A stretch of DNA of 51,337 nt. Origin: a virus (Duplodnaviria; Heunggongvirae; Uroviricota; Caudoviricetes). Of the stretch, positions 4,115 to 22,929 are shown piece by piece. The DNA lies in IMG/VR virus record IMGVR_UViG_3300043399_001190; one strand, given 5' to 3'. The notes below the pieces were generated by a model that was not told the DNA's origin, ran no database searches, and saw only the letters and a program-made list of their open reading frames with translations. Within the stretch, counting starts at the first letter, position 1. Every line of letters begins with the position of its first letter. A program made the position numbers and the translations under genes.

Positions 4115-4262
4115 TAAGGCAATGTGGTTTTTATACAGTTCAAGTATTTCTTTGCTTGATGTATTTGTGGTGATTATTTTGTCTTCTCTAGGCGCCTGGT
4201 ATTGGCTTTTGATGCTACCTTGGTTTTTATATTCTTCCAAACAAAAACAAAAGTATGATTAA
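4098..4262 (+). CDS. small membrane protein (54 aa)
   Basis: MSNVIDKAMWFLYSSSISLLDVFVVIILSSLGAWYWLLMLPWFLY...; below ORF-track cutoff. Confidence 0.6.
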   Translation: MSNVIDKAMWFLYSSSISLLDVFVVIILSSLGAWYWLLMLPWFLYSSKQKQKYD

Positions 4263-4380
4263 AAAATTTGTACGCGAATTTCAATTTTATCTGGATGCTT
4301 GGAAGTTTTGTACTGATAATAAAATTCCTTTGGAAAAAATTGTTAAAAAAGATTTCAAGACCTGGATTGTGGTTGAATGA
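4255..4380 (+). CDS. small hypothetical protein (41 aa)
   Basis: MIKKFVREFQFYLDAWKFC...; fills the gap, ATGA-coupled to the next gene. Confidence 0.55.
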   Translation: MIKKFVREFQFYLDAWKFCTDNKIPLEKIVKKDFKTWIVVE

Positions 4381-5498
4381 AAATGGTGAGAAGAAGAAAC
4401 ACTGCCCTTTCCTATTTTATAGATAGAATGATGGGTGTTGATCCTTCAGGTATGAAACAATTGAGATATTCGACACTTAAGAAAAAAAAGGTTGCTATGA
4501 TTAGCGATAATGATAATAAAATTGTGCTTGGTACGAGTGACATTACGGATTTTTTCATCTCCAATATTGTGGAGGAACGTTCGAAACTGAAGATTGACAC
4601 TTGCCGTGAACATTTTGGAATTTACTGCGCCAAAAATGAATGGCGAAATTTCTTCACACAATTGTCCGACCTACGTATCATGGATTTTGGGCATGAGACT
4701 TATTTCTTTGATGATGAAGGCTTGAACTATATTCTTGGCACAAATCATTCCACACACGTAAGTATCACCATTACTGGTGATGCGGTTTTCATTGAGAAAT
4801 TTCAGGAACGTTTCGCAAAGAACTTTGATTTTGTTAAGAATCAAATCGAATGGATTTATTCTTCTGACGGTAACTCCATCGACATTCCTTTGCAGAATGA
4901 ACGTATGCCTGTGGCTGAAATGTATCCGTTCCTCGGTGAGAAATCACTGGAGAAATATTATGATGACTTTATGAAGTCTAGCGCGTCCATCCTATTGCTG
5001 ATTGGACCGCCTGGTACAGGTAAAACCACTTTCATTCGTGGTATGTTGCAGCACACTAATTCTTCCGCCACTCTTACATATGATGCAAACATTCTTGAAA
5101 AAGATTATGTGTTTGCAAATTTCATTGAGGGTGAAAAGAATGTTCTGATTCTTGAAGATGCGGATATGTTCCTTAAATCTCGCAAAGAAGGTAACACTAT
5201 CATGCATAAATTTTTGAACGTTGGTGATGGTCTGGTGACAACCCGAGGAAAGAAAATGGTTTTCTCCACAAATCTACCGTCTATCAAAGATATTGATCCT
5301 GCATTGATTCGCCCAGGTCGTTGTTATGATATCGTGCATTTCACCGAGTTGAATCAAGAGCAGGCACAAAAACTGGCTGACCGTTGCAATGTTGAATTGA
5401 ACGGTAAGCGTGATAAGTGGTCTATTGCTGATGTTTTCTTCAACGAAAATACCAACAATAAGTTTAAAGAAAAAGAAAATAAGATTGGATTTGTATGA
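4377..5498 (+). CDS. AAA+ ATPase (BCS1/FtsH-like ATPase core)
   Basis: GPPGTGKT, LILEDAD, FSTN, IDPALIRPGR second region of homology, C-terminal IGFV. Confidence 0.9.
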   Translation: MKMVRRRNTALSYFIDRMMGVDPSGMKQLRYSTLKKKKVAMISDNDNKIVLGTSDITDFFISNIVEERSKLKIDTCREHFGIYCAKNEWRNFFTQLSDLRIMDFGHETYFFDDEGLNYILGTNHSTHVSITITGDAVFIEKFQERFAKNFDFVKNQIEWIYSSDGNSIDIPLQNERMPVAEMYPFLGEKSLEKYYDDFMKSSASILLLIGPPGTGKTTFIRGMLQHTNSSATLTYDANILEKDYVFANFIEGEKNVLILEDADMFLKSRKEGNTIMHKFLNVGDGLVTTRGKKMVFSTNLPSIKDIDPALIRPGRCYDIVHFTELNQEQAQKLADRCNVELNGKRDKWSIADVFFNENTNNKFKEKENKIGFV

Positions 5499-14401: not shown

Positions 14402-15328
14402 ATGGCAACGACAATAAGTCAAACAACTGTAGTATATCCAGATACATCAACGGAATCATCGCTTAAGTCGCCGGTGAGGGCTATATTTGGATATGGATAT
14501 AATGACATTTCCAACCTCAGTATGACCAATTTCGTTAACAATTATGGCACACTTTCTGTTGATATCACTGGTGTAGGTACACAAAGAAATGTTCTAGCCG
14601 CAGCGGGTTATGGTGGTGATAAAGCCATATTTGGTTATGGTTATGCATCATCACAAGTTTCCTTAACAAACTTGGTTTCCAATCTGGGTGTTGTTGGTAA
14701 TGATGTAACTGGTGTTGGAACTGCAAGATATGAATTGTCCGCAGCGGGTTATGGTGGTGATAAAGCCATATTTGGTTATGGTTATACAACAGTGGAAGTT
14801 TCCTTAACAAACTTGGTTTCCAATCTCGGTGTTGTTGGTAATGATGTAACTGGTGTTGGAACTGCAAGACGAAGCCTTGCTGCGGCAGGTTATGGTGGAG
14901 ATAAAGCCATTTTTGGATATGGTGTCGGATCTGGTTATTTTAATTTAACCAATTTAGTATCTAATACGGGCGTTGTTGGTAATGATGTAACTGGTGTTGG
15001 AACTTCTAGAGAAGGTTTGGCAGCAGCAGGTTATGGTGGAGATAAAGCCATTTTTGGTTATGGTGATACAGGTTCTACATCCGTCAGTTTAACCAATTTA
15101 GTATCTAATACGGGCGTTGTTGGTAATGATGTAACTGGTGTTGGAACAGCAAGACTATACCTTGCGGCAGCAGGTTATGGTGGAGATAAAGCTATATTTG
15201 GATTTGGTTTTATTGGTTCTCCTGTTCGAACAACCAATTTGGTGTCAAATCTTGGTGTTGTTGCGACCAATATTACTGGGATTGGGACATCCAGATATAG
15301 TCTTGCAGCAGCATCATACAGTTCATAA
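14402..15328 (+). CDS. six-repeat beta-propeller-like (Kelch-like) protein A
   Basis: ~47-aa repeat R-xx-LAAAGYGGDKAIFGYG-x(5-9)-TNLVSNxGVVGNDVTGVGT, six AIFG units. Confidence 0.8.
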   Translation: MATTISQTTVVYPDTSTESSLKSPVRAIFGYGYNDISNLSMTNFVNNYGTLSVDITGVGTQRNVLAAAGYGGDKAIFGYGYASSQVSLTNLVSNLGVVGNDVTGVGTARYELSAAGYGGDKAIFGYGYTTVEVSLTNLVSNLGVVGNDVTGVGTARRSLAAAGYGGDKAIFGYGVGSGYFNLTNLVSNTGVVGNDVTGVGTSREGLAAAGYGGDKAIFGYGDTGSTSVSLTNLVSNTGVVGNDVTGVGTARLYLAAAGYGGDKAIFGFGFIGSPVRTTNLVSNLGVVATNITGIGTSRYSLAAASYSS

Positions 15329-17215
15329 AGAGAATAATAAATGGCAGTAACACTCACTTCAACTGGCGTTCTCTACAACGACACTACAACAATCACAAAT
15401 AGTGTGACTGCGACTAGAGCTATATTTGGGTATGGTTATAGTTCTGCTTTTACGGCCGTTAGTGTAACAAATTTAGTTAATAATTATGGGCAAGTTGCCA
15501 CAGACACAACAGGTGTGGGAACTGCAAGATACGACTTAGCGGCCGCAGGTTATGGTGGTGACAAAGCAATATTTGGATATGGCGCACTCACTGACGGCAC
15601 CGTTGTTTCAATGACCAATTTAGTATCTAATTTGGGTGTTGTTGGAAACAATGTAACTGGAGTTGGAACAGCAAGAAAAGGTTTGGCCGCCGCAGGTTAT
15701 GGTGGCGATAAAGCAATTTTTGGTTATGGATGGAACGGATCATCAACTGTCAGTTTGACAAACCTTGTATCCAATACAGGTGTTGTTGGAAACGATGTAA
15801 CAGGAGTTGGAACAACAAGACAACTATTGGCTGCCGCTGGTTATGGTGGCGATAAAGCAATTTTCGGATATGGCGGGGGTGCATCAATTTATTCATTAAC
15901 CAATTTAGTTTCAAATACAGGTGTTGTTGGAAACGATGTAACAGGAGTTGGAACAGCAAGAACACAGTTAGCTGCTGCTGGCTATGGTGGTGATAAAGCA
16001 ATTTTTGGTTATGGTTATGAAAATTTATCAATGACCAATCTTGTATCAAATATCGGAGTTGTCAGCACAGATGTTACAGGCGTAGGTTCGGGAAGACACG
16101 GACCAGCCGCGGCAGGTTATGGTGGTGATAAAGCAATTTTTGGTTATGGTTATGCGAGCACAGTTACATGGTACAATTTGACTAATCTGGTGTCGAATAC
16201 GGGTGTTGTTAGTTCAGATGTTACAGGTGTCGGTACAACCAGATATAGTTTGGCGGCGGCCTCATACAGTTCATAAAGAGAAAATAAATGGCAACAAGTT
16301 TAGTAAGTCAGGGTGTTCAATATCCAAACGGTTCGATACGAACAAGTGGTAAATGGGCCGTTAAAGCAATATTCGGACATGGTGCAATAGTTGGTGGTGC
16401 TTATGGTGTAACAAATTTAGTAAACAACTACGGCGTGGTTTCCACGGATATTACTGCGGTAGGCACACCAAGATTTAGATTGGCCGCAGCAGGATATGGT
16501 GGCGATAAGGCCATATTCGGATATGGAAGTGATGATACAACAGTAAGAAGTTTCACCAATTTAATTTCAAATTTGGGTGTTTCATCATCAGATATCACTG
16601 GTGTTGGTACGGCGAGAAGAAATTTAGCAGCAGCTACTTATGGTGTTGATAAGGCCATATTTGGTTATGGGTTTTCAACTGCGAGTGTATCTTTGACAAA
16701 TTTGGTGTCGAATATTGGAGTTGTTGCAGGCGATACTACAGGTGTGGGTACTGCAAGAAATGGTTTAGCTGCGGCTGGATATGGTGGAGATAAAGCAATA
16801 TTTGGTTACGGATTTTCAACTGTAAATGTGTCATTAACAAATTTAGTTTCGAATTTAGGTGTGGTTGGCACAGATGTTACCGGTGTCGGAACTGCCAGAG
16901 TATATTTGGCCGCAGCAGGATATGGTGGCGATAAGGCCTTATTCGGATATGGTTACACCAGCACTCCTGTTTCAATGACTAATTTGGTTTCAAATGCCGG
17001 TGTAGTTGGTTCAGATGTTACCGGTGTTGGAACTGCTAGATACTATCTTGCGGCCGCGGGATATGGTGGCGATAAGGCCATATTCGGGTATGGAACAATT
17101 GGTAGCGCACCATATATAAATTTGACAAACTTGGTGACTAATTTGGGTTCCGTCGGTACTGATAAAACTGGCGTTGGAACAGCTAGATATGGTTTAGCCG
17201 CGGCATCATATAGTT
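14480..17215 (+). repeat. ~141-nt coding tandem repeats (about 18 units in three genes)
   Basis: For example CCGCAGCGGGTTATGGTGGTGATAAAGCCATATTTGGTTATGGTTAT recurs 141 nt apart in gene A. Confidence 0.95.
15341..16276 (+). CDS. six-repeat beta-propeller-like protein B
   Basis: Same repeat; ends RYSLAAASYSS. Confidence 0.8.
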   Translation: MAVTLTSTGVLYNDTTTITNSVTATRAIFGYGYSSAFTAVSVTNLVNNYGQVATDTTGVGTARYDLAAAGYGGDKAIFGYGALTDGTVVSMTNLVSNLGVVGNNVTGVGTARKGLAAAGYGGDKAIFGYGWNGSSTVSLTNLVSNTGVVGNDVTGVGTTRQLLAAAGYGGDKAIFGYGGGASIYSLTNLVSNTGVVGNDVTGVGTARTQLAAAGYGGDKAIFGYGYENLSMTNLVSNIGVVSTDVTGVGSGRHGPAAAGYGGDKAIFGYGYASTVTWYNLTNLVSNTGVVSSDVTGVGTTRYSLAAASYSS

Positions 17216-17220
17216 CATAA
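16288..17220 (+). CDS. six-repeat beta-propeller-like protein C
   Basis: Same repeat; ends RYGLAAASYSS. Confidence 0.8.
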   Translation: MATSLVSQGVQYPNGSIRTSGKWAVKAIFGHGAIVGGAYGVTNLVNNYGVVSTDITAVGTPRFRLAAAGYGGDKAIFGYGSDDTTVRSFTNLISNLGVSSSDITGVGTARRNLAAATYGVDKAIFGYGFSTASVSLTNLVSNIGVVAGDTTGVGTARNGLAAAGYGGDKAIFGYGFSTVNVSLTNLVSNLGVVGTDVTGVGTARVYLAAAGYGGDKALFGYGYTSTPVSMTNLVSNAGVVGSDVTGVGTARYYLAAAGYGGDKAIFGYGTIGSAPYINLTNLVTNLGSVGTDKTGVGTARYGLAAASYSS

Positions 17221-17251: not shown

Positions 17252-17905
17252 ATGGCAGCAAAATTAAACAGTGAGTTTAATTATCGTTATCAAGTGATTG
17301 GTGAAACACCTTGGGAAAAAATTAAACAACTACAGAACTTTCTTGAGGGTCGCATTCGTGCAGCAGCATTAGAGGAAGTTTCCAATTTGAAATATAAAGC
17401 CAAAAAATCTGAATTGGATATGGCTATAAAAAACGGTGCCATGGATCATGTCATTATGAATCTACGGGCAGAACTTTTGGAAATGGAATCATTTTTTCCC
17501 GCTCAAGACCAAAGCTTTGAATTGAATCGTCAAGAGATTAAGATTTTAGAAAAACTTTTAGATGAGTTGTTTGAAATTGCGGAGCCAACGAGATTGAGAC
17601 ATGAAGATGGTACACCATATACCGATGAAGAAATGTTTGAAGCTAATGCAGCCAATGAATTTACGGTGATGATTGCAAAAGAAATTCAAGCAGAGATTTT
17701 AGCTAATGGTAGACCATCACCAGCAAAATTGCGTAATGCTATGTCTAATCCACATACATTTCATGCTCTGCAACAAGTTGGGTTTATTCCTAAAGAAGCA
17801 ATTTTGATTGAGGGTAACGTTGATCCGTTAAAAATTGAATTGCGCCCATCACCATCAATGATACCACTAACAGAAGAAGAAATCCAAAGATTGGAGAACA
17901 AGTAA
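17252..17905 (+). CDS. helical/coiled-coil protein of the propeller cassette
   Basis: AGGAG RBS; TAAATA at 17218; helical composition. Confidence 0.8.
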   Translation: MAAKLNSEFNYRYQVIGETPWEKIKQLQNFLEGRIRAAALEEVSNLKYKAKKSELDMAIKNGAMDHVIMNLRAELLEMESFFPAQDQSFELNRQEIKILEKLLDELFEIAEPTRLRHEDGTPYTDEEMFEANAANEFTVMIAKEIQAEILANGRPSPAKLRNAMSNPHTFHALQQVGFIPKEAILIEGNVDPLKIELRPSPSMIPLTEEEIQRLENK

Positions 17906-18312
17906 TGTTTTACCTTTGCACAGTAGAATCAAAAGATTTAGTAACAGTTTTCGGTAACAGAGGATTGCCAGGTGAAGAAGTGATTCCACCGAAATATGAA
18001 AATCTAAATGTCATTATGATTGGCCAAAGGCCAGATTGTTCTGGTTATCTTTTGTTATCTGATACTGTTGTGAGAGAGTTTAAGAAACAAACTTCTGTTC
18101 CTGAAGGTTACGATTTTATCTTCCGTCAAGAATGGGGCCTAAGAATTACCGAAGAAAGTATTCACCGAGTAATTGACACTTTGCGTAAGGAAGCTTATCC
18201 TCCGATGGCCGATTATCTTGATGCCAAAGTCAAAGGTGATTTGGAACAAGAACAAGCTTATCTGGATGCTTGTTTAGCAGTCAAAGCAAAATATCCAAAA
18301 TTTTCTTGGTAA
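17905..18312 (+). CDS. putative tail-fibre assembly/chaperone-like protein
   Basis: C-terminal R-x2-AYP-x2-DYLDA-x-VKGD...ACLAVKAKYPK motif of a kind seen next to phage fibre genes. Confidence 0.55.
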   Translation: MFYLCTVESKDLVTVFGNRGLPGEEVIPPKYENLNVIMIGQRPDCSGYLLLSDTVVREFKKQTSVPEGYDFIFRQEWGLRITEESIHRVIDTLRKEAYPPMADYLDAKVKGDLEQEQAYLDACLAVKAKYPKFSW

Positions 18313-18328
18313 TTTATCAGAAAAACAC

Positions 18329-18364
18329 TTGCCACCTAAATAATAAAACACTATAATAGTGTTT
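18329..18364 (+). promoter_or_regulatory. composite promoter of the original tmRNA locus
   Basis: TTGCCA(18329)-17-TATAAT(18352); embedded TAAATA(18337); AAACACTA/TAGTGTTT palindrome around the -10. Confidence 0.75.
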
Positions 18365-18412
18365 ATGGTTGTACGAAGCAACTAGAAAAATGTTCTGGAC
18401 GCGGGTTCGATT
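18364..18412 (+). pseudogene. ssrA: truncated tmRNA acceptor-piece copy broken at the T-loop
   Basis: GGTTGTACGAAG...GTTCTGGACGCGGGTTCGATT aligns with GCTGTATGAAG...GTCTTGGACGGGAGTTCGATT at 19541-19585 but lacks the 3' T-stem, acceptor strand and CCA. Confidence 0.8.
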
Positions 18413-18911
18413 AAGCCTGTTTTACCATGAAACCACCATGTGTCTTATTACCTCGTAATGACGCATTGGCAAAGGCATTAGCATTGTATCCGCGATCCAT
18501 ACACCACTGACGCAACCCTTCTACTCGCTCAACGGTTCCGTCTGGATGAGTAACATCATAAACCTTCCCAGTCCAAGTTTTACCCCTTGCTTGTCTCGCA
18601 CTCTTGTATTTCTGGTGTAGTTCGGCGGCTCTTTCAGCACCGAAGATTTCTTCCCATTTCTTGCCCTTACGCTGTCTGATGTTTGTTTGTCCACCTTTTC
18701 TACTACCAGCCATGATTGCTTCCTTAGCGGCATCAAAGTTAGCATCAAGTTGGGCAAGTCCTTGCCAAGCAACATAATCCTGCCAATGCCCATGTTGTTC
18801 ATACAATAAACGATGTGCTTCGGCATGTTCGCCCGGTGTTAGTTCGATGAGGTTGCTTGGATCGTCTGAACCGCCCATGTGTTTTGGGATAATATGATGT
18901 TTGTGTCTCAT
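18411..18911 (-). CDS. HNH homing endonuclease (NUMOD-like C-terminus)
   Basis: MRHKHHIIPKHMGGSDDPSNLIELT..EHAEAHRLL (Mob-type HNH), KGKKWEEIFG repeat-like motif; TAAATA 5 nt upstream of the ATG. Confidence 0.9.
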   Translation of the reverse strand: MRHKHHIIPKHMGGSDDPSNLIELTPGEHAEAHRLLYEQHGHWQDYVAWQGLAQLDANFDAAKEAIMAGSRKGGQTNIRQRKGKKWEEIFGAERAAELHQKYKSARQARGKTWTGKVYDVTHPDGTVERVEGLRQWCMDRGYNANAFANASLRGNKTHGGFMVKQA

Positions 18912-18922
18912 ACTATTATTTA

Positions 18923-18972
18923 GTCGAAACCATAGAAAAACGCTTGACAAAGGTTTCGACAAGTGTTATACT
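18923..18972 (+). promoter_or_regulatory. early promoter within an inverted repeat
   Basis: GTCGAAACC/GGTTTCGAC arms; TTGACA(18944)-17-TATACT(18967). Confidence 0.8.
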
Positions 18973-18995
18973 CTGTTAAATTCTGGAGTTAATAA

Positions 18996-19307
18996 ATGAT
19001 TGACTATTATGAAGCCTTGAGAGAAATGCACCGTGGCAATGTTGTAAAGTATGTGGGCACAGTGAATGGCAATGTAATGAGTGACAATGGTGCCAGTTTC
19101 TGTATGTGTCGCGGGTGTATATTTCTCTTTGACCGCGGAGAAATCAAATGGAACAAGTTAGGCTACATGGTCTATGACCCAGACTTTCGTTACGAACTAA
19201 CTGGCGAAACAGTTGACCCGAGGGCATGGAAGCCAGAGAAGAACAGAGACCGTAAAGAGATTAAATCAAAGTTGGGTTATAGTCGTGTAGGATTGGGGAA
19301 TGTATGA
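18996..19307 (+). CDS. hypothetical protein, paralog of 8850-9158
   Basis: GGAG RBS; end-to-end similarity. Confidence 0.85.
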   Translation: MIDYYEALREMHRGNVVKYVGTVNGNVMSDNGASFCMCRGCIFLFDRGEIKWNKLGYMVYDPDFRYELTGETVDPRAWKPEKNRDRKEIKSKLGYSRVGLGNV

Positions 19308-19528
19308 ACGAACGAATTAAAGAACTTGCGAGAGAGGCTGGTCTTCTGGTATATAATCCTGAAGGTGCCCCAACTAAGTTAGAAAAGTTCGCCGAGTTGA
19401 TTGTTAGAGAATGTATCGGTTGTTGTGAGCAAGTGATTAGCGATCCTGTTCCCGAATCGGTAGATACTTGGTTGAATGGTGGTGAACAATGTATCCAAGA
19501 AATTAAACAACACTTTGGAGTAGAATAA
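19304..19528 (+). CDS. MNER-family hypothetical protein
   Basis: MNERIKELA...KFAELIVREC...IKQHFGVE. Confidence 0.85.
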   Translation: MNERIKELAREAGLLVYNPEGAPTKLEKFAELIVRECIGCCEQVISDPVPESVDTWLNGGEQCIQEIKQHFGVE

Positions 19529-19536
19529 ATAAGAGT

Positions 19537-19863
19537 TATTGCTGTATGAAGTGAAGTGAAACAGGTCTTGGACGGGAGTTCGATTCTCCCCACCTCCACC
19601 AAAAGAACACACATCGCTACTCACCTGAAATAGTGCGATGGTACAGATGATAGTGGTGAAGTAATATCTGCTTATGTGTGCTTTTGATGGGGGTGACTGG
19701 TTTCGACAGGGCAAAGAGTAACAGAGTGGACAGCACGGTAGGCGATGACCGTAAATCAAGCAAATCAAGTAAACGCAGCTAATGATAGCCGCTTCGCTCT
19801 TGCCGCTTAAACGGTAATCGAATGGGGATTTGTAGATTGTTCCTTATTAACCAAACAATCTAC
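19537..19863 (+). ncRNA. ssrA: circularly permuted (two-piece) tmRNA: acceptor piece ~19537-19601, intervening sequence 19602-19688, coding piece 19689-~19863
   Basis: T-arm GGGAG-TTCGATT-CTCCC followed by CACCTCC-A-CCA; downstream GGGGGTG-ACTGGTTTCGAC forms a 7-bp acceptor stem with G3.U70; tag frame 19775-19810 AANDSRFALAA*; terminal hairpin GTAGATTGTT/AACAATCTAC; TAAATA at 19526. Outer ends approximate. Confidence 0.93.
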
Positions 19864-19883
19864 CATTTCAAGAAAGGAAAAAT

Positions 19884-20441
19884 ATGCGAAGTAAACCAAT
19901 ACTTTTCAGCATAGTTTTTTCCGCAGCAGTGATATCTTTGGGTATGATTAATGTTGATCTACATGGTTTGTTACCCTTCAAAACATCTTATAACAATCTT
20001 TCAAAAGATGTGCAAAAACAAGTCACATGCCTTGCGGAAAATATTTACTTTGAGGCCGCACATGAGCCACTTTCTGGAAAAAAAGCAGTAGCGTTTGTAA
20101 CATTGAACCGTCTGCAATCTGGAAACTATGCTAATACAATTTGTGATGTGGTCTTTCAAAAGACCAACGGTGTTTGCCAATTCTCTTGGTATTGCGATTC
20201 AAATATACTGAAGAAGAGGTTGACAATACGTGACACTATGCTTTATAATGAGATTCGTGAGTTGGCAACAAACATAGTTGTAAACTTCGAACGCATGAAG
20301 GATGTTACCGATGGTGCAACCTACTATCATGCGGATTATGTGAATCCTGGTTGGAAACTAAAGAAAATTGACCAAATTGGTCGACATATTTTCTATAGAA
20401 GCCATAAGGATAATATTGACAGAAACAAGGAAATTATATGA
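19884..20441 (+). CDS. SleB-like cell wall hydrolase (Hydrolase_2)
   Basis: CLAENIYFEA, AVAFVTLNR, ICDVVFQ, CQFSWYC, GATYYHADYVNPGW, IGRHIFY; N-terminal hydrophobic anchor. Confidence 0.92.
   Translation: MRSKPILFSIVFSAAVISLGMINVDLHGLLPFKTSYNNLSKDVQKQVTCLAENIYFEAAHEPLSGKKAVAFVTLNRLQSGNYANTICDVVFQKTNGVCQFSWYCDSNILKKRLTIRDTMLYNEIRELATNIVVNFERMKDVTDGATYYHADYVNPGWKLKKIDQIGRHIFYRSHKDNIDRNKEII
20220..20249 (+). promoter_or_regulatory. intragenic sigma70-type promoter
   Basis: TTGACA-18-TATAAT within the hydrolase gene, upstream of genes 33/59. Confidence 0.6.
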
Positions 20442-20671: not shown

Positions 20672-20895
20672 TGCCTACGAAAGATGAAATGAGAGATTTC
20701 AGTGCCATCATTGAAAAGTTGGCACTAGAAAAAGCAATAAGTCTAATGGACGCGGTGGTACTACACTGCGAACAAATTGGTTTTGAAGTTGAATTGGCTG
20801 CTTCCCTTTTAACACCACCAATCAAAGCTAAAATTGGTGAAGAGGCGCAAGCACTAAACTTAATGAAAAAGAAAGTAAATAAATTGCCACTATGA
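20671..20895 (+). CDS. 33: late transcription coactivator gp33-like
   Basis: FSAIIEKL...MDAVVLHCE...E.AASLL...IKAKI.EEA..LNLM; synteny 33-59-32. Confidence 0.8.
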   Translation: MPTKDEMRDFSAIIEKLALEKAISLMDAVVLHCEQIGFEVELAASLLTPPIKAKIGEEAQALNLMKKKVNKLPL

Positions 20896-21497
20896 ACGAA
20901 GCCGGTGGATTTGAAGCCTATGCAATGTACCATGGATTAAAGTTACATTTCTCAGGCAACTATGATTATGTGAAATATAACGGCAAAACAAATGTGACCA
21001 AAGAGCAATTCATGCTTCGAAAGGATAAATTTTCTTATTATAAATTATCCAGAAAATACAAGCGTGAAGAATTGTTTGGTTTCTATGTGGCAAACTTTCT
21101 TAAAAATCCTAAAATTTGGGTCGGCGATCTTCTAATGGAAGATGCTGAATCAGAATACAAACTGTGGCTTCGTGTTCAACAATCACTGTCTTATATCTTT
21201 GAACAAAATTTGGATTACCTATTCGACCAGGTAAATGCTCCAGATGAATTGTTAAAAGTTATTGACGGGCAATATCCGTTGTTGTATAATTATCTAACAC
21301 AGGATAAAATCTATCTTGAAACGGTAGTAATACTTGACGATATTATGAATTTTATTCCTATGTGGAGTAAAAAAGTTGATGATGATATCATTTTCCCCGA
21401 CTTCATAAAAAAATGCCAAAAGTATAAACCATTTTTAAATTATGATAAAGTGAAAATGAAAAAAATATTGAAAGAGAAATTATGTCAGTTAGCGTGA
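20892..21497 (+). CDS. 59: helicase loader gp59
   Basis: Y..LKLHFS.NYDYVKYNGK, RKDKF.Y.KLSRKY, LETVVILD, KYKPFL. Confidence 0.9.
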   Translation: MNEAGGFEAYAMYHGLKLHFSGNYDYVKYNGKTNVTKEQFMLRKDKFSYYKLSRKYKREELFGFYVANFLKNPKIWVGDLLMEDAESEYKLWLRVQQSLSYIFEQNLDYLFDQVNAPDELLKVIDGQYPLLYNYLTQDKIYLETVVILDDIMNFIPMWSKKVDDDIIFPDFIKKCQKYKPFLNYDKVKMKKILKEKLCQLA

Positions 21498-22047: not shown

Positions 22048-22929
22048 ATGAGTTCATTCGCTAATCTCAAAAAACAATCTGGTAATCTCGACAAACTAGC
22101 CAAAGCTATCGAACAGCTTAACTCGGCAGAATCTCCCTCCAAAGAAGACAATTTCTGGAAACCAGAAGTAGACAAAGCAGGCAACGGCTATGCAGTCATT
22201 CGTTTTCTTCCTGCACCTGGTGTAGATGGTGATGATGGTCTACCATGGGTCAAAATCTTCAACCATGGCTTTCAGGGTCCAGGTGGTTGGTACATCGAAA
22301 ATTCTCTAACGACTCTTGGTCAGAAAGATCCTGTTTCTGAGTACAACTCTCAGTTGTGGAATTCTGGAATTGATGCTAACAAAGAAGTTGCACGTAAACA
22401 GAAACGTCGTCTTTCTTATATTGCCAACATTTACGTTGTTGAAGATCCGAAAAATCCTGAAAACGAAGGCAAGGTTTTCTTGTACAAGTTCGGTAAGAAA
22501 ATCTTCGACAAGATCAATGAAGCAATGAATCCTCAATTTGAGGATGAGAAAGCAGTTAACCCATTTGACCTATGGGCTGGCGCTAACTTCAAATTGAAGA
22601 TTCGTAAAGTTGAGGGCTATCAGAACTATGATAAGTCTGAGTTTGAATCGCCTTCTGTTCTTGGTGGTTTTGATGACGACAAACTTGAACAAATTTGGAA
22701 GAAAGAATATTCTCTGAAAGAATTCTTGCTGCCAGAAAACTTCAAGTCATACGATGAATTGAAAGCTCGCCTTGACAAAGTTCTTGGTGTTGATGGTTCT
22801 GCACCTGTACCACGTACAACTGTTGAACAAGCTAAGGCTGCTCCTGCTGCACGTAAAGCAACAATGCCAGAAACGACAGATGATGACGATGATTTGGCTT
22901 ACTTCTCTAAACTAGCAGAAGAAGAATAA
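22048..22929 (+). CDS. 32: single-stranded DNA-binding protein gp32
   Basis: DKAGNGYAVIRFLP, HGFQGPGGWYIENSLTT, GKKIFDKI, NYDKSEF, acidic tail. Confidence 0.97.
   Translation: MSSFANLKKQSGNLDKLAKAIEQLNSAESPSKEDNFWKPEVDKAGNGYAVIRFLPAPGVDGDDGLPWVKIFNHGFQGPGGWYIENSLTTLGQKDPVSEYNSQLWNSGIDANKEVARKQKRRLSYIANIYVVEDPKNPENEGKVFLYKFGKKIFDKINEAMNPQFEDEKAVNPFDLWAGANFKLKIRKVEGYQNYDKSEFESPSVLGGFDDDKLEQIWKKEYSLKEFLLPENFKSYDELKARLDKVLGVDGSAPVPRTTVEQAKAAPAARKATMPETTDDDDDLAYFSKLAEEE

Follow-up and report, generated by a model that had tools for sequence, protein, structure and literature searches.

The window analysed here, a stretch of 51,337 nucleotides from a virus of the Caudoviricetes (IMG/VR record IMGVR_UViG_3300043399_001190), carries what is very probably, as judged from genome comparisons, a free-standing HNH homing cassette specialised on the acceptor-piece gene of the phage two-piece tmRNA. 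Of the recipient gene, the 5' part survives as a non-functional stub of 46 nt behind its old promoter, and a chimeric gene has been reconstituted downstream. The host is a T4-like phage of lytic type, with gp32 and gp59 present on the contig.

The broken and the rebuilt tmRNA gene

The permuted two-piece tmRNA occupies 19540-19870, and an orphan fragment lies about 1.2 kb upstream of it. The features of the locus, with the evidence for each, are as follows.

17905-18312, plus strand: native upstream gene, 135 aa, function unassigned; left flank common with HNH-less relatives (81-83% nucleotide identity to L004 and L002)
18329-18357, plus strand: orphaned native tmRNA promoter, TTGCCA-17-TATAAT (promoter scan, 11/12 consensus)
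18367-18412, plus strand: orphaned 5' remnant of the native acceptor piece (sequence, alignment of relatives, Rfam tmRNA model)
18411-18911, minus strand: HNH homing endonuclease gene, 166 aa (ORF list, Pfam, phrog, homologues)
18923-18972, plus strand: cassette control region (promoter scan; 9-nt inverted repeat)
18996-19307, plus strand: orfA, 103 aa, a hitch-hiking gene
19304-19528, plus strand: orfB, 74 aa, of a small-protein family (98% identical copy in L234)
19524-19531, plus strand: T4-late-promoter-like box AATAAATA before the replacement acceptor piece (read from sequence; kept in L251, L257 and L036)
19540-19601, plus strand: replacement acceptor piece, cassette-borne, T-arm and CCA end complete (99-100% identity to L251 and L257; 63-67% to relatives of the same context)
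19602-19688, plus strand: intervening spacer, cassette-derived (98% identity to L251 and L257; 14-36% to HNH-less relatives)
19689-19764, plus strand: 5' part of the coding piece (acceptor-stem strand and P2 strand ACAGCA), cassette-derived (99% identity to L251)
19765-19778, no strand: right recombination junction, from cassette-type to native-type sequence (alignment)
19779-19870, plus strand: 3' part of the coding piece, native, with the tag reading frame (19775-19810) (95% identity to HNH-less L004; 15% to L251)
19884-20441, plus strand: native downstream gene, a cell-wall hydrolase, right flank (Pfam Hydrolase_2, 6e-22; 83% nucleotide identity to L004 and L011)

The native promoter is strong and sigma-70-like, with its -35 element at 18329-18334 and its -10 element at 18352-18357. 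A homologous promoter stands before the intact tmRNA in the HNH-less L002, L004 and L011; in the window it is now directed antisense into the HNH gene. In the 46-nt orphan that follows, the 5' part of a permuted tmRNA's acceptor piece is recognisable by homology; its final bases form the T-stem arm GCGGG (18401-18405) and the T-loop TTCGATT (18406-18412), the break falling after the last T-loop base. The Rfam tmRNA model aligns the orphan up to the T-loop, with the final 15 model positions absent (E 0.007, a score below gathering, as expected of a fragment). The HNH stop codon is the complement of 18411-18413, and two of its bases are the last two bases of the T-loop. Both this sharing and the promoter at 18329 leading into an acceptor-piece sequence that ends GCGGG-TTCGATT had been described in the sequence-only reading, and the ORF coordinates, the promoter scan and Rfam agree with it. 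The fragment is of tmRNA and not of an unrelated tRNA.

The complete permuted tmRNA downstream was recognised by RF04321 (121 bits), by RF01850 (100.6 bits) and by ARAGORN as a permuted gene, with the tag peptide AANDSRFALAA ending in ALAA and a stop codon. As the same reading had held, this second acceptor piece follows about 1.2 kb on, after a new promoter and two small genes. Its T-arm is GGGAG/TTCGATT/CTCCC at 19574-19590, followed by CACCTCC-ACCA at 19591-19601. GGGGGTG at 19689-19695 pairs with CACCTCC at 7 of 7 positions, the third pair being G-U (read from sequence). The coding-piece strand ACAGCA (19730-19735) is complementary to TGCTGT of the second copy, whereas GGTTGT of the orphan pairs with it incompletely. 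It was thus correctly noted that the T-stems differ (GCGGG versus GGGAG) and that only the second copy matches CTCCC and pairs fully with the coding piece, these pairing claims resting only on the window sequence and the Rfam scores. A pairing score for P2 and the acceptor stem across loci was uninformative, with loose registers and G-U pairs allowed, and was discarded.

Empty sites, mosaicism and distribution of the junction

In the syntenic, HNH-less L002, L004 and L011, whose flanks are 81-83% identical, one intact tmRNA is present, and its acceptor piece stands directly after the homologous promoter. Exactly such relatives had been predicted, and none of them carries the truncated fragment. 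Homology of these relatives to the window ends at 18412 and restarts in the coding piece. An intact allele with exactly GCGGG-TTCGATT-CCCGC exists in L247.

The window is a mosaic. Its flanks and the tmRNA from 19779 match the HNH-less relatives, and positions 18413-19764 share 94-99% identity with the cassettes of unrelated phages such as L251, whose flanks are unrelated; the native upstream gene has no nucleotide identity to the cassette-bearing L251 and L257. The cassette-derived tract extends from about 18393-18412 to 19765-19778. All segments required to pair with the new acceptor piece fall within it, and the tag-coding part is native. The proposed swap of ssrA alleles therefore holds for the front part of the gene, but not for the tag-coding part from about 19779. 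Right-hand ends of the co-conversion tracts vary among loci, at 19738 in L096 and L257 and at 19777 in L091 and L251. On the left, the 5' half of the window orphan is 88% identical to the native type of L002 and L011, and its last 20 nt are 100% identical to the cassette-type fragment of L257; left-hand co-conversion in the window is no more than possible, since naturally occurring alleles that lack HNH contain GCGGG as well (L017, L073 and L247). Across loci, the 5' halves of the orphans fall into at least 6 allele classes, and the 20 nt beside the break are nearly invariant, which fits target specificity, short co-conversion or both.

The identical junction of T-loop and HNH gene was found at 73 loci, that is, in the window and in 72 other contigs (10 from IMG/VR and 62 from metagenomes), which fall into at least 43 clusters of unrelated upstream flank. 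It was also recovered in independent run assemblies. Since the junction is repeated in all three sources, the arrangement is neither chance nor an assembly error. In one independent freshwater run, the cassette and the HNH-less allele were both present. ARAGORN is blind to tmRNAs with a gene in the spacer, so its adjacency counts were replaced by motif searches. Contigs from RNA libraries have no strand resolution and may derive from DNA, and RNA runs with a small share were left out of the evidence, as were stretches of the window to which the runs gave no read coverage. A search of cultured-phage DNA with the 4.5-kb region gave only four matches, all short and weak; no isolate with the cassette is therefore known.

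The HNH gene, its variants and its neighbours

The HNH ORF matches Pfam HNH (PF01844) at 21.4 bits, exactly at the cut-off, and phrog_655 'homing endonuclease' at 3e-17. Among 42 homologues, H5, H6, N20, H29 and H33 of the HNH motif are invariant or nearly so, and the gene is intact in 37 of 42 copies. Purifying selection is evident (dN/dS 0.02-0.16 at dS up to 0.8). In total 1168 homologues were found, most without annotation; in cultured T4-like phages, relatives matching over the full length carry annotations as homing or mobile endonucleases, at an identity of only 25-30%. The structure model (pLDDT 86) has as its best Foldseek match the HNH homing endonuclease I-HmuI (1u3e), a weak one (E 9e-3, TM about 0.3). 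A sequence search of solved structures gave only a match over the HNH motif, to the HNH domain of a group II intron maturase.

Independent, related HNH variants repeat the design with tmRNA breaks at positions close by. Members of a clade 59-69% identical adjoin an orphan whose break lies 4 nt earlier within the T-loop (L261, L263 and L265); this second junction type is known only from four looked-up cases and had no occurrence in the IMG/VR scan. A 46% variant in L234 lies behind an orphan broken in the acceptor strand, and the gene upstream of it is the same as in the phage of L257. A nested invasion can be seen in L258, where a second HNH gene has interrupted even the replacement copy, at the T-loop position of the first break. 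As L099 and L262 have a related HNH gene directly upstream of the tmRNA with no orphan fragment, the orphan is not obligatory.

In the control region, the arms of the inverted repeat (18923-18931 and 18952-18960) bracket the -35 element of a second sigma-70-like promoter (18944-18972, 11/12 consensus), which is predicted to drive orfA and orfB. Both arms are kept in 33 of 40 copies of the window type and also in the 59-69% HNH clades. The product of orfA is widespread at 80-99% amino acid identity, members of the orfB family form tandem arrays in other cassettes, and both genes occur also far from tmRNA. Small genes do ride along, as had been proposed, but because orfA lies away from HNH or tmRNA in 67 of 80 loci, they are better called hitch-hiking neighbours than cargo, and a dedicated payload is not indicated. 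OrfA had no Pfam match even at E 10 (PF11195 included) and no significant Foldseek hit. VIA-align gave Z scores of 6.3, 6.0 and 5.7 to AcrIIA7, ModTad2 and a phage neck protein, the next unrelated protein scoring 3.7, with an rmsd of 2.6 A over 61-62 residues for AcrIIA7 and ModTad2; an atlas lead to DUF2829-type proteins reached only 0.81. A DUF2829 fold (Tad2/AcrIIA7-like) is possible for orfA.

The 8 nt before the T-stem distinguish the replacement copies. TTCTGGAC is the commonest form among HNH-less phage tmRNAs. It was found in 0 of 26 linked full copies, of which 23 have TCTTGGAC and 3 have other forms, although these are not 26 independent events, as the changes are inherited with the cassette. 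Between TTCTGGAC and TCTTGGAC, one position changes in the bulge and one C-G pair becomes U-G, both structure-neutral. It is probably changes of this structure-neutral kind, within the 8-mer, that protect the linked copy. The difference in the T-stem, which had been stressed earlier, is probably not responsible; the linked copy of L252 has the same GCGGG/CCCGC stem as the orphans, so the T-stem was rejected as the immunity determinant, whereas the 8 nt preceding it are altered in each of the 26 linked copies. Orphans of the other HNH clade include some with TCTTGGAC or TTCAAGAC, and the 8-mer therefore cannot be a universal immunity motif.

Proposed homing mechanism, rival explanations and known systems

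During a mixed infection, the HNH enzyme would cut or nick the cassette-less tmRNA gene at or beside the T-loop, and recombinational repair would then copy the donor. The left end would pair with the orphan 5' fragment of the donor, whose end coincides with the break, and the right end with that part of the donor's complete tmRNA which follows the T-loop. The HNH gene, the control region, the neighbouring small genes, the promoter and a fresh tmRNA 5' part would thereby be copied in. We infer the cleavage, its position and the allele preference from DNA comparison. The left homology arm, at most about 46 nt, is short, which counts against this mechanism.

The reading of the locus as a tmRNA-targeting homing cassette is supported by the empty sites, by the mosaic and by the same broken tmRNA being abutted in 43 contexts. 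It is unlikely that modules were instead shuffled passively by ordinary homologous recombination at the tmRNA, with the HNH gene as a passenger or cutting elsewhere. In mosaic phage genomes, conserved RNA genes serve naturally as linkers for recombination, and this explanation also draws on the occurrence of orfA and orfB elsewhere and on the purely comparative case for cleavage. However, it does not account for the HNH stop codon lying exactly on the T-loop break across 43 contexts, for three more HNH variants that each adjoin a broken tmRNA fragment of their own, for the 20 nt at the break being invariant against a variable rest of the orphan, or for the absence of the common 8-mer from all linked copies.

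Two other explanations involve removal or integration of the insert, and the sequence-only reading had already set both aside; the absence of an intron family and of an integrase agrees with it. It is scarcely credible that the 1.17-kb insert is removed, like an intron, from a transcript of the 18329 promoter so as to link the orphan with the 3' part further downstream. The tmRNA T-loop does harbour group I introns at four subsites, and some of these contain endonuclease genes (PMC11915505), but no intron family reached its gathering score in an Rfam scan of the window, and the insert has a second 5' part, complete and under a promoter of its own. Moreover, the orphan GCGGG mismatches CTCCC, the orphan 5' end pairs incompletely with the coding piece, and such a transcript would run antisense to the HNH gene. 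A scar left by an integrase-mediated island or prophage, with the tmRNA as attachment site, is likewise extremely improbable. HNH, orfA and orfB are the only ORFs of the insert, and no integrase lies in or beside it. Integrases displace the 3' fragment and leave an intact gene first; the fragment displaced here is the 5' part. The host, moreover, is of the lytic T4-like type. In favour of a scar, tmRNA genes are classic integration sites of genomic islands (PMC11915505, PMC9004378).

The closest analogue of the homing cassette is found in fungal mitochondria, in mORFs with a foreign gene terminus (Allomyces macrogynus atp6; Glomus atp6, atp9, cox2 and nad3; PMC3630166). There too, an endonuclease gene has inserted into an essential gene, with no intron or intein involved, and brings a foreign copy of the displaced part, the native part remaining beside it as an unexpressed remnant; in mORFs the hybrid gene works. 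The mORFs replace, in frame, the 3' (C-terminal) end of protein genes and encode LAGLIDADG or GIY-YIG enzymes, whereas in the cassette the 5' part of an RNA gene and its promoter are replaced, the enzyme is an HNH protein encoded antisense, a phage serves as host and additional genes are aboard. Free-standing homing endonucleases of T4-like phages, MobE and SegB, the latter in a tRNA cluster (PMC2790892, PMC2330249), are likewise intron-less genes beside their targets, sporadic among relatives, and act through break repair with co-conversion of flanking markers; SegB shares with the cassette a location in an RNA-gene region. Unlike the cassette, which lies inside a gene and restores it with its own copy, they are intergenic and lack a duplicated gene fragment. 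T-loop group I introns invade the same few nucleotides of tmRNA, and some carry homing endonuclease genes (PMC11915505), but these encode LAGLIDADG enzymes and splicing keeps the gene intact, whereas the cassette has no ribozyme and replaces part of the gene. Methylophilales phage Melnitz and pelagimyophages are, like the host of the window, T4-like aquatic myophages with a permuted ssrA behind an early promoter, and the study describing them mentions neither an endonuclease cassette nor an orphan fragment or allele replacement (PMC9004378). A literature search of incomplete coverage found no paper on an HNH cassette in phage tmRNA, nor a description of the same design in an RNA gene, in a 5' part or in phages.

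On balance, we lean towards a broader view, in which a whole 'exon-replacing' HNH family would be specialised on phage two-piece tmRNA. Its promoter and resistant 5' segment would patch the gene and, together with the stub, would provide the homology arms for the next jump. Such a family would drive an arms race over the nucleotides about the T-arm (swapped 8-mers, odd T-loops and nested re-invasions) and would ferry small genes between unrelated aquatic phages, among them possibly anti-defence genes such as one for a Tad2/AcrIIA7-like protein. The cassette by itself, in bringing along a spare part and a promoter, points to a third route, beside introns and inteins, for a homing endonuclease to reside inside an essential gene; earlier records of such gene-end replacement concern the 3' ends of protein genes in mitochondria. 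It also marks phage tmRNA as a contested, fast-exchanging locus. As the cassette explains chimeric ssrA alleles, phage tmRNA phylogenies from which host switches are inferred need care. The insertion contexts, at least 43 in number, offer a natural system for target recognition, fold-keeping immunity mutations and hitch-hiking of accessory genes, and a compact 166-aa enzyme predicted to recognise a highly conserved T-arm sequence could be of practical interest.

Layout of the broken tmRNA and the HNH cassette

The T4-type replication genes gp59 and gp32 identify the window as a T4-like phage contig, and the runs containing it are chiefly freshwater, wastewater and similar metagenomes. ARAGORN and Rfam detected a single complete tmRNA, circularly permuted and with the tag peptide AANDSRFALAA (RF04321, 121 bits at 19540-19810; RF01850, 100.6 bits at 19489-19870). 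The sequence-only reading proposed that an HNH cassette breaks a phage tmRNA at the T-loop and supplies a replacement copy; all elements on which it was built were found where it had placed them.

Features of the locus (window coordinates)
18329-18357: promoter before the orphan, 11/12 consensus positions in a promoter scan
18367-18412: orphan, a broken copy of the acceptor-piece 5' part by alignment, 46 nt, ~1.2 kb upstream of the complete tmRNA
18411-18911, antisense: HNH endonuclease gene, 166 aa
18944-18972: second promoter, upstream of two small ORFs
Between the small ORFs and the complete tmRNA: late-promoter-like box
19689-19695: acceptor-stem strand, within the cassette tract
19730-19735: ACAGCA, within the cassette tract, pairs with the new acceptor piece
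20892-21497: gp59
22048-22929: gp32

The orphan ends at the last T-loop base (18412). Against the Rfam standard tmRNA model it aligns as far as the T-loop, the last 15 positions being missing, and the HNH stop codon starts, in antisense, right at this break. The His-His, Asn and His positions of the enzyme are conserved in 42 homologues, and its AlphaFold model is confident (pLDDT 86), with a weak best Foldseek match to the HNH homing endonuclease I-HmuI. Full-length relatives in cultured T4-like phages are only 25-30% identical and are annotated as homing or mobile endonucleases; nearly all of the 1168 family members (E <= 1e-5) are unnamed.

Empty sites, mosaic structure and recurrence

Related IMG/VR loci were retrieved by searching with both neighbouring genes, the 135-aa one upstream and the cell-wall hydrolase downstream. 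In three HNH-less loci with the same flanks (L002, L004 and L011), a homologous promoter leads straight into a single intact permuted tmRNA. BLAST homology between the window and these empty sites ends at 18412 and restarts only in the coding piece, demonstrating an insertion with defined boundaries. A mosaic was read from segment-by-segment identities and the alignment. The window shares its flanking genes with the HNH-less relatives at 81-83% identity, and these genes bear no relation to L251 and L257, which carry the cassette between other flanks. By contrast, L251 matches 18413-19528 at 94% identity, a stretch of which ~1% can be aligned to the HNH-less relatives; over the second acceptor piece, the spacer and the coding piece up to its 76th nucleotide, identity to L251 is 98-100%. 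Coding-piece identity with L257 stops at ~19738, and 19779-19870 is 95% identical to HNH-less L004 versus 15% to L251. These clean switches, with native flanks and an L251-like middle, indicate that a native locus received a ~1.37-kb block by recombination. The right crossover lies at 19765-19778, immediately upstream of the tag reading frame. The left crossover probably lies inside the orphan, whose 5' half is native-type (88% identity to L002 and L011) and which over its final 20 nt matches the cassette-type fragment base for base. Every segment required to pair with the new acceptor piece is included in the cassette tract, and the outcome is a chimeric tmRNA that keeps the native tag. An independent freshwater run contains cassette contigs and one contig that departs from the window at 18412 and rejoins it at 19697, an HNH-less allele within the same sample.

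Close HNH homologues, found with the protein as query, lie in loci with the same T-loop/HNH junction. Exact-pattern scans detected this junction in 10 IMG/VR and 62 metagenome contigs, giving 73 loci with the window. The 80 nt upstream of the orphan form 43 unrelated clusters in these 73 loci, many with promoters of their own, demonstrating recurrence in unrelated contexts. At least 6 allele classes are represented among the orphan 5' halves, and the break-proximal 20 nt are nearly invariant. From break to replacement copy the distance is 596-3027 nt, and the cargo is clearly variable, the intervening small genes differing between loci. Of the 42 HNH copies that could be scored, 37 are intact and 5 broken; the pairwise dN/dS of the gene, 0.02-0.16 at dS up to 0.8, demonstrates an old, selected gene. 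Additionally, third-codon-position diversity over 28 distinct HNH copies drops from ~0.25-0.40 to ~0.10 in the last 30 codons by the junction (18411-18500), which might be a trace of recent conversion close to the break or of a function at the nucleotide level, for instance one serving the transcript from the orphan promoter.

Probable homing and the alternative explanations

The locus is probably explained by a homing cassette, in which the HNH enzyme would cleave at or near the tmRNA T-loop, the orphan and the replacement copy would serve as homology arms in repair, and the linked copy would be immune through an 8-mer change. The main competing explanation has the block shuffled passively at conserved tmRNA sequence; this gives no account of four different HNH variants exactly adjoining four broken tmRNA fragments and leaves the invariant target-proximal 20 nt unexplained. 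Readings as an intron or an integrase element fail on their defining features.

The variants are as follows. In L261, L263 and L265 an HNH gene 59-69% identical also adjoins an orphan, whose break lies four nucleotides further 5' in the T-loop; here the cargo is an ArsC-like gene or ORFs within the spacer. L234 has the same architecture (HNH 46% identical, orfA present, orfB 98% identical) with an orphan extending through the T-arm into the acceptor strand; it shares its upstream gene with L257, indicating invasion of two related phages, each at a different position. L258 displays a nested invasion (oriented, junction +1100 to +1990): deletion has left a stub of roughly 35 nt from the first HNH, the replacement acceptor piece is re-broken at the same T-loop position, and a second, sense-oriented HNH gene (209 aa) encodes a third acceptor 5' part in its 3' end. 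In L099 and L262 the HNH gene lies immediately upstream of the tmRNA without an orphan, an arrangement that may represent either the ancestral, free-standing form or the product of a later deletion. More distant relatives occur inside the tmRNA spacer (L034, L102, L122-type, L129, L140), which seems to be a safe harbour for endonuclease genes, and in L005 (5408-6100) and L007 (747-1510) an unrelated endonuclease separates the native tmRNA promoter from the acceptor piece. Such varied arrangements mark the phage tmRNA as a hot spot for endonuclease genes.

The spacer genes are in sense, ~55-60% identical in the N-terminal half, and begin 10-75 nt past the CCA end; in L034 (gene at 4188-4900) just 2 nt separate the gene's end from the coding piece. 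The L005/L007 endonuclease (179-182 aa, sense) overlaps the acceptor-piece 5' end with its last codons, and in L005 the native acceptor 5' end survives upstream as just 12 nt. Non-canonical T-loops (GGCGGTA, GGCAGTA, GGCAGTG) occur in endonuclease-associated linked or orphan T-arms of L265, L005 (linked, GGCAGTA) and L234, and may be escape alleles, altered where targeting is heaviest.

The homing interpretation of the sequence-only reading is supported with corrections. The T-stem difference to which it pointed (GCGGG versus GGGAG) does not generally explain protection of the linked copy, since linked copies also carry GGGGG, GCGAG and, in L252, GCGGG with a matching arm. The 8-mer TTCTGGAC just before the T-stem, the commonest form among HNH-less phage tmRNAs and retained in nearly all orphans, is absent from all 26 linked copies, 23 having TCTTGGAC and 3 other forms. 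In the Rfam alignment one change falls at an unpaired position and the other replaces a C-G pair by U-G, so these changes cost the RNA little. Loss of TTCTGGAC is a candidate immunity signature, and stays a candidate because the linked copies have common ancestry.

The tmRNA T-loop is a known group I intron site, some introns carrying LAGLIDADG genes (PMC11915505), two-piece tmRNAs are known in phages (PMC9004378), and the spread of T4 Seg and Mob enzymes is accompanied by co-conversion (PMC2330249, PMC2790892). In its logic the cassette comes closest to the mORF elements of fungal mitochondria, whose design it mirrors: these bring in a foreign gene end on insertion, and the native end remains as a remnant (PMC3630166); the phage cassette, however, replaces the 5' part and promoter of an RNA gene, with an HNH enzyme. 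Literature searches found no description of such an HNH cassette in a phage tmRNA.

Control region, small genes and repeats

A 9-nt inverted repeat (18923-18960) flanks the -35 box of the cassette's rightward promoter. Its arms are conserved over HNH clades of 59-100% identity, with variable sequence between them, and resemble the T-arm and a motif conserved at the 5' end of the tmRNA coding piece; the repeat is a candidate operator through which HNH might regulate its own expression. No Pfam family was found for orfA (18996-19307). The three best structural matches of its model are AcrIIA7, anti-Thoeris Tad2 and a phage neck protein (Z 5.7-6.3, next 3.7), and it occurs at 80-99% amino acid identity in many phage contigs, some >300 kb, mostly not near tmRNA. 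orfB (19304-19528) belongs to a family of 65-100-aa proteins with N-terminal MNERIxEL and C-terminal HFGVE, which forms tandem arrays of at least 6 paralogues in other cassettes (L257, junction +890 to +2990). Its 60-nt core (19359-19419) reaches ~28x local contig depth in the source run, indicating a motif highly repeated in the source community. Upstream, at 14402-17220, lie three tandem ~310-aa genes made of repeats with the motif AAAGYGGDKAIFGYG; two such genes lie between the 135-aa gene and the tmRNA in L003 (412-2298), a different placement suggesting that this family also moves around the locus.
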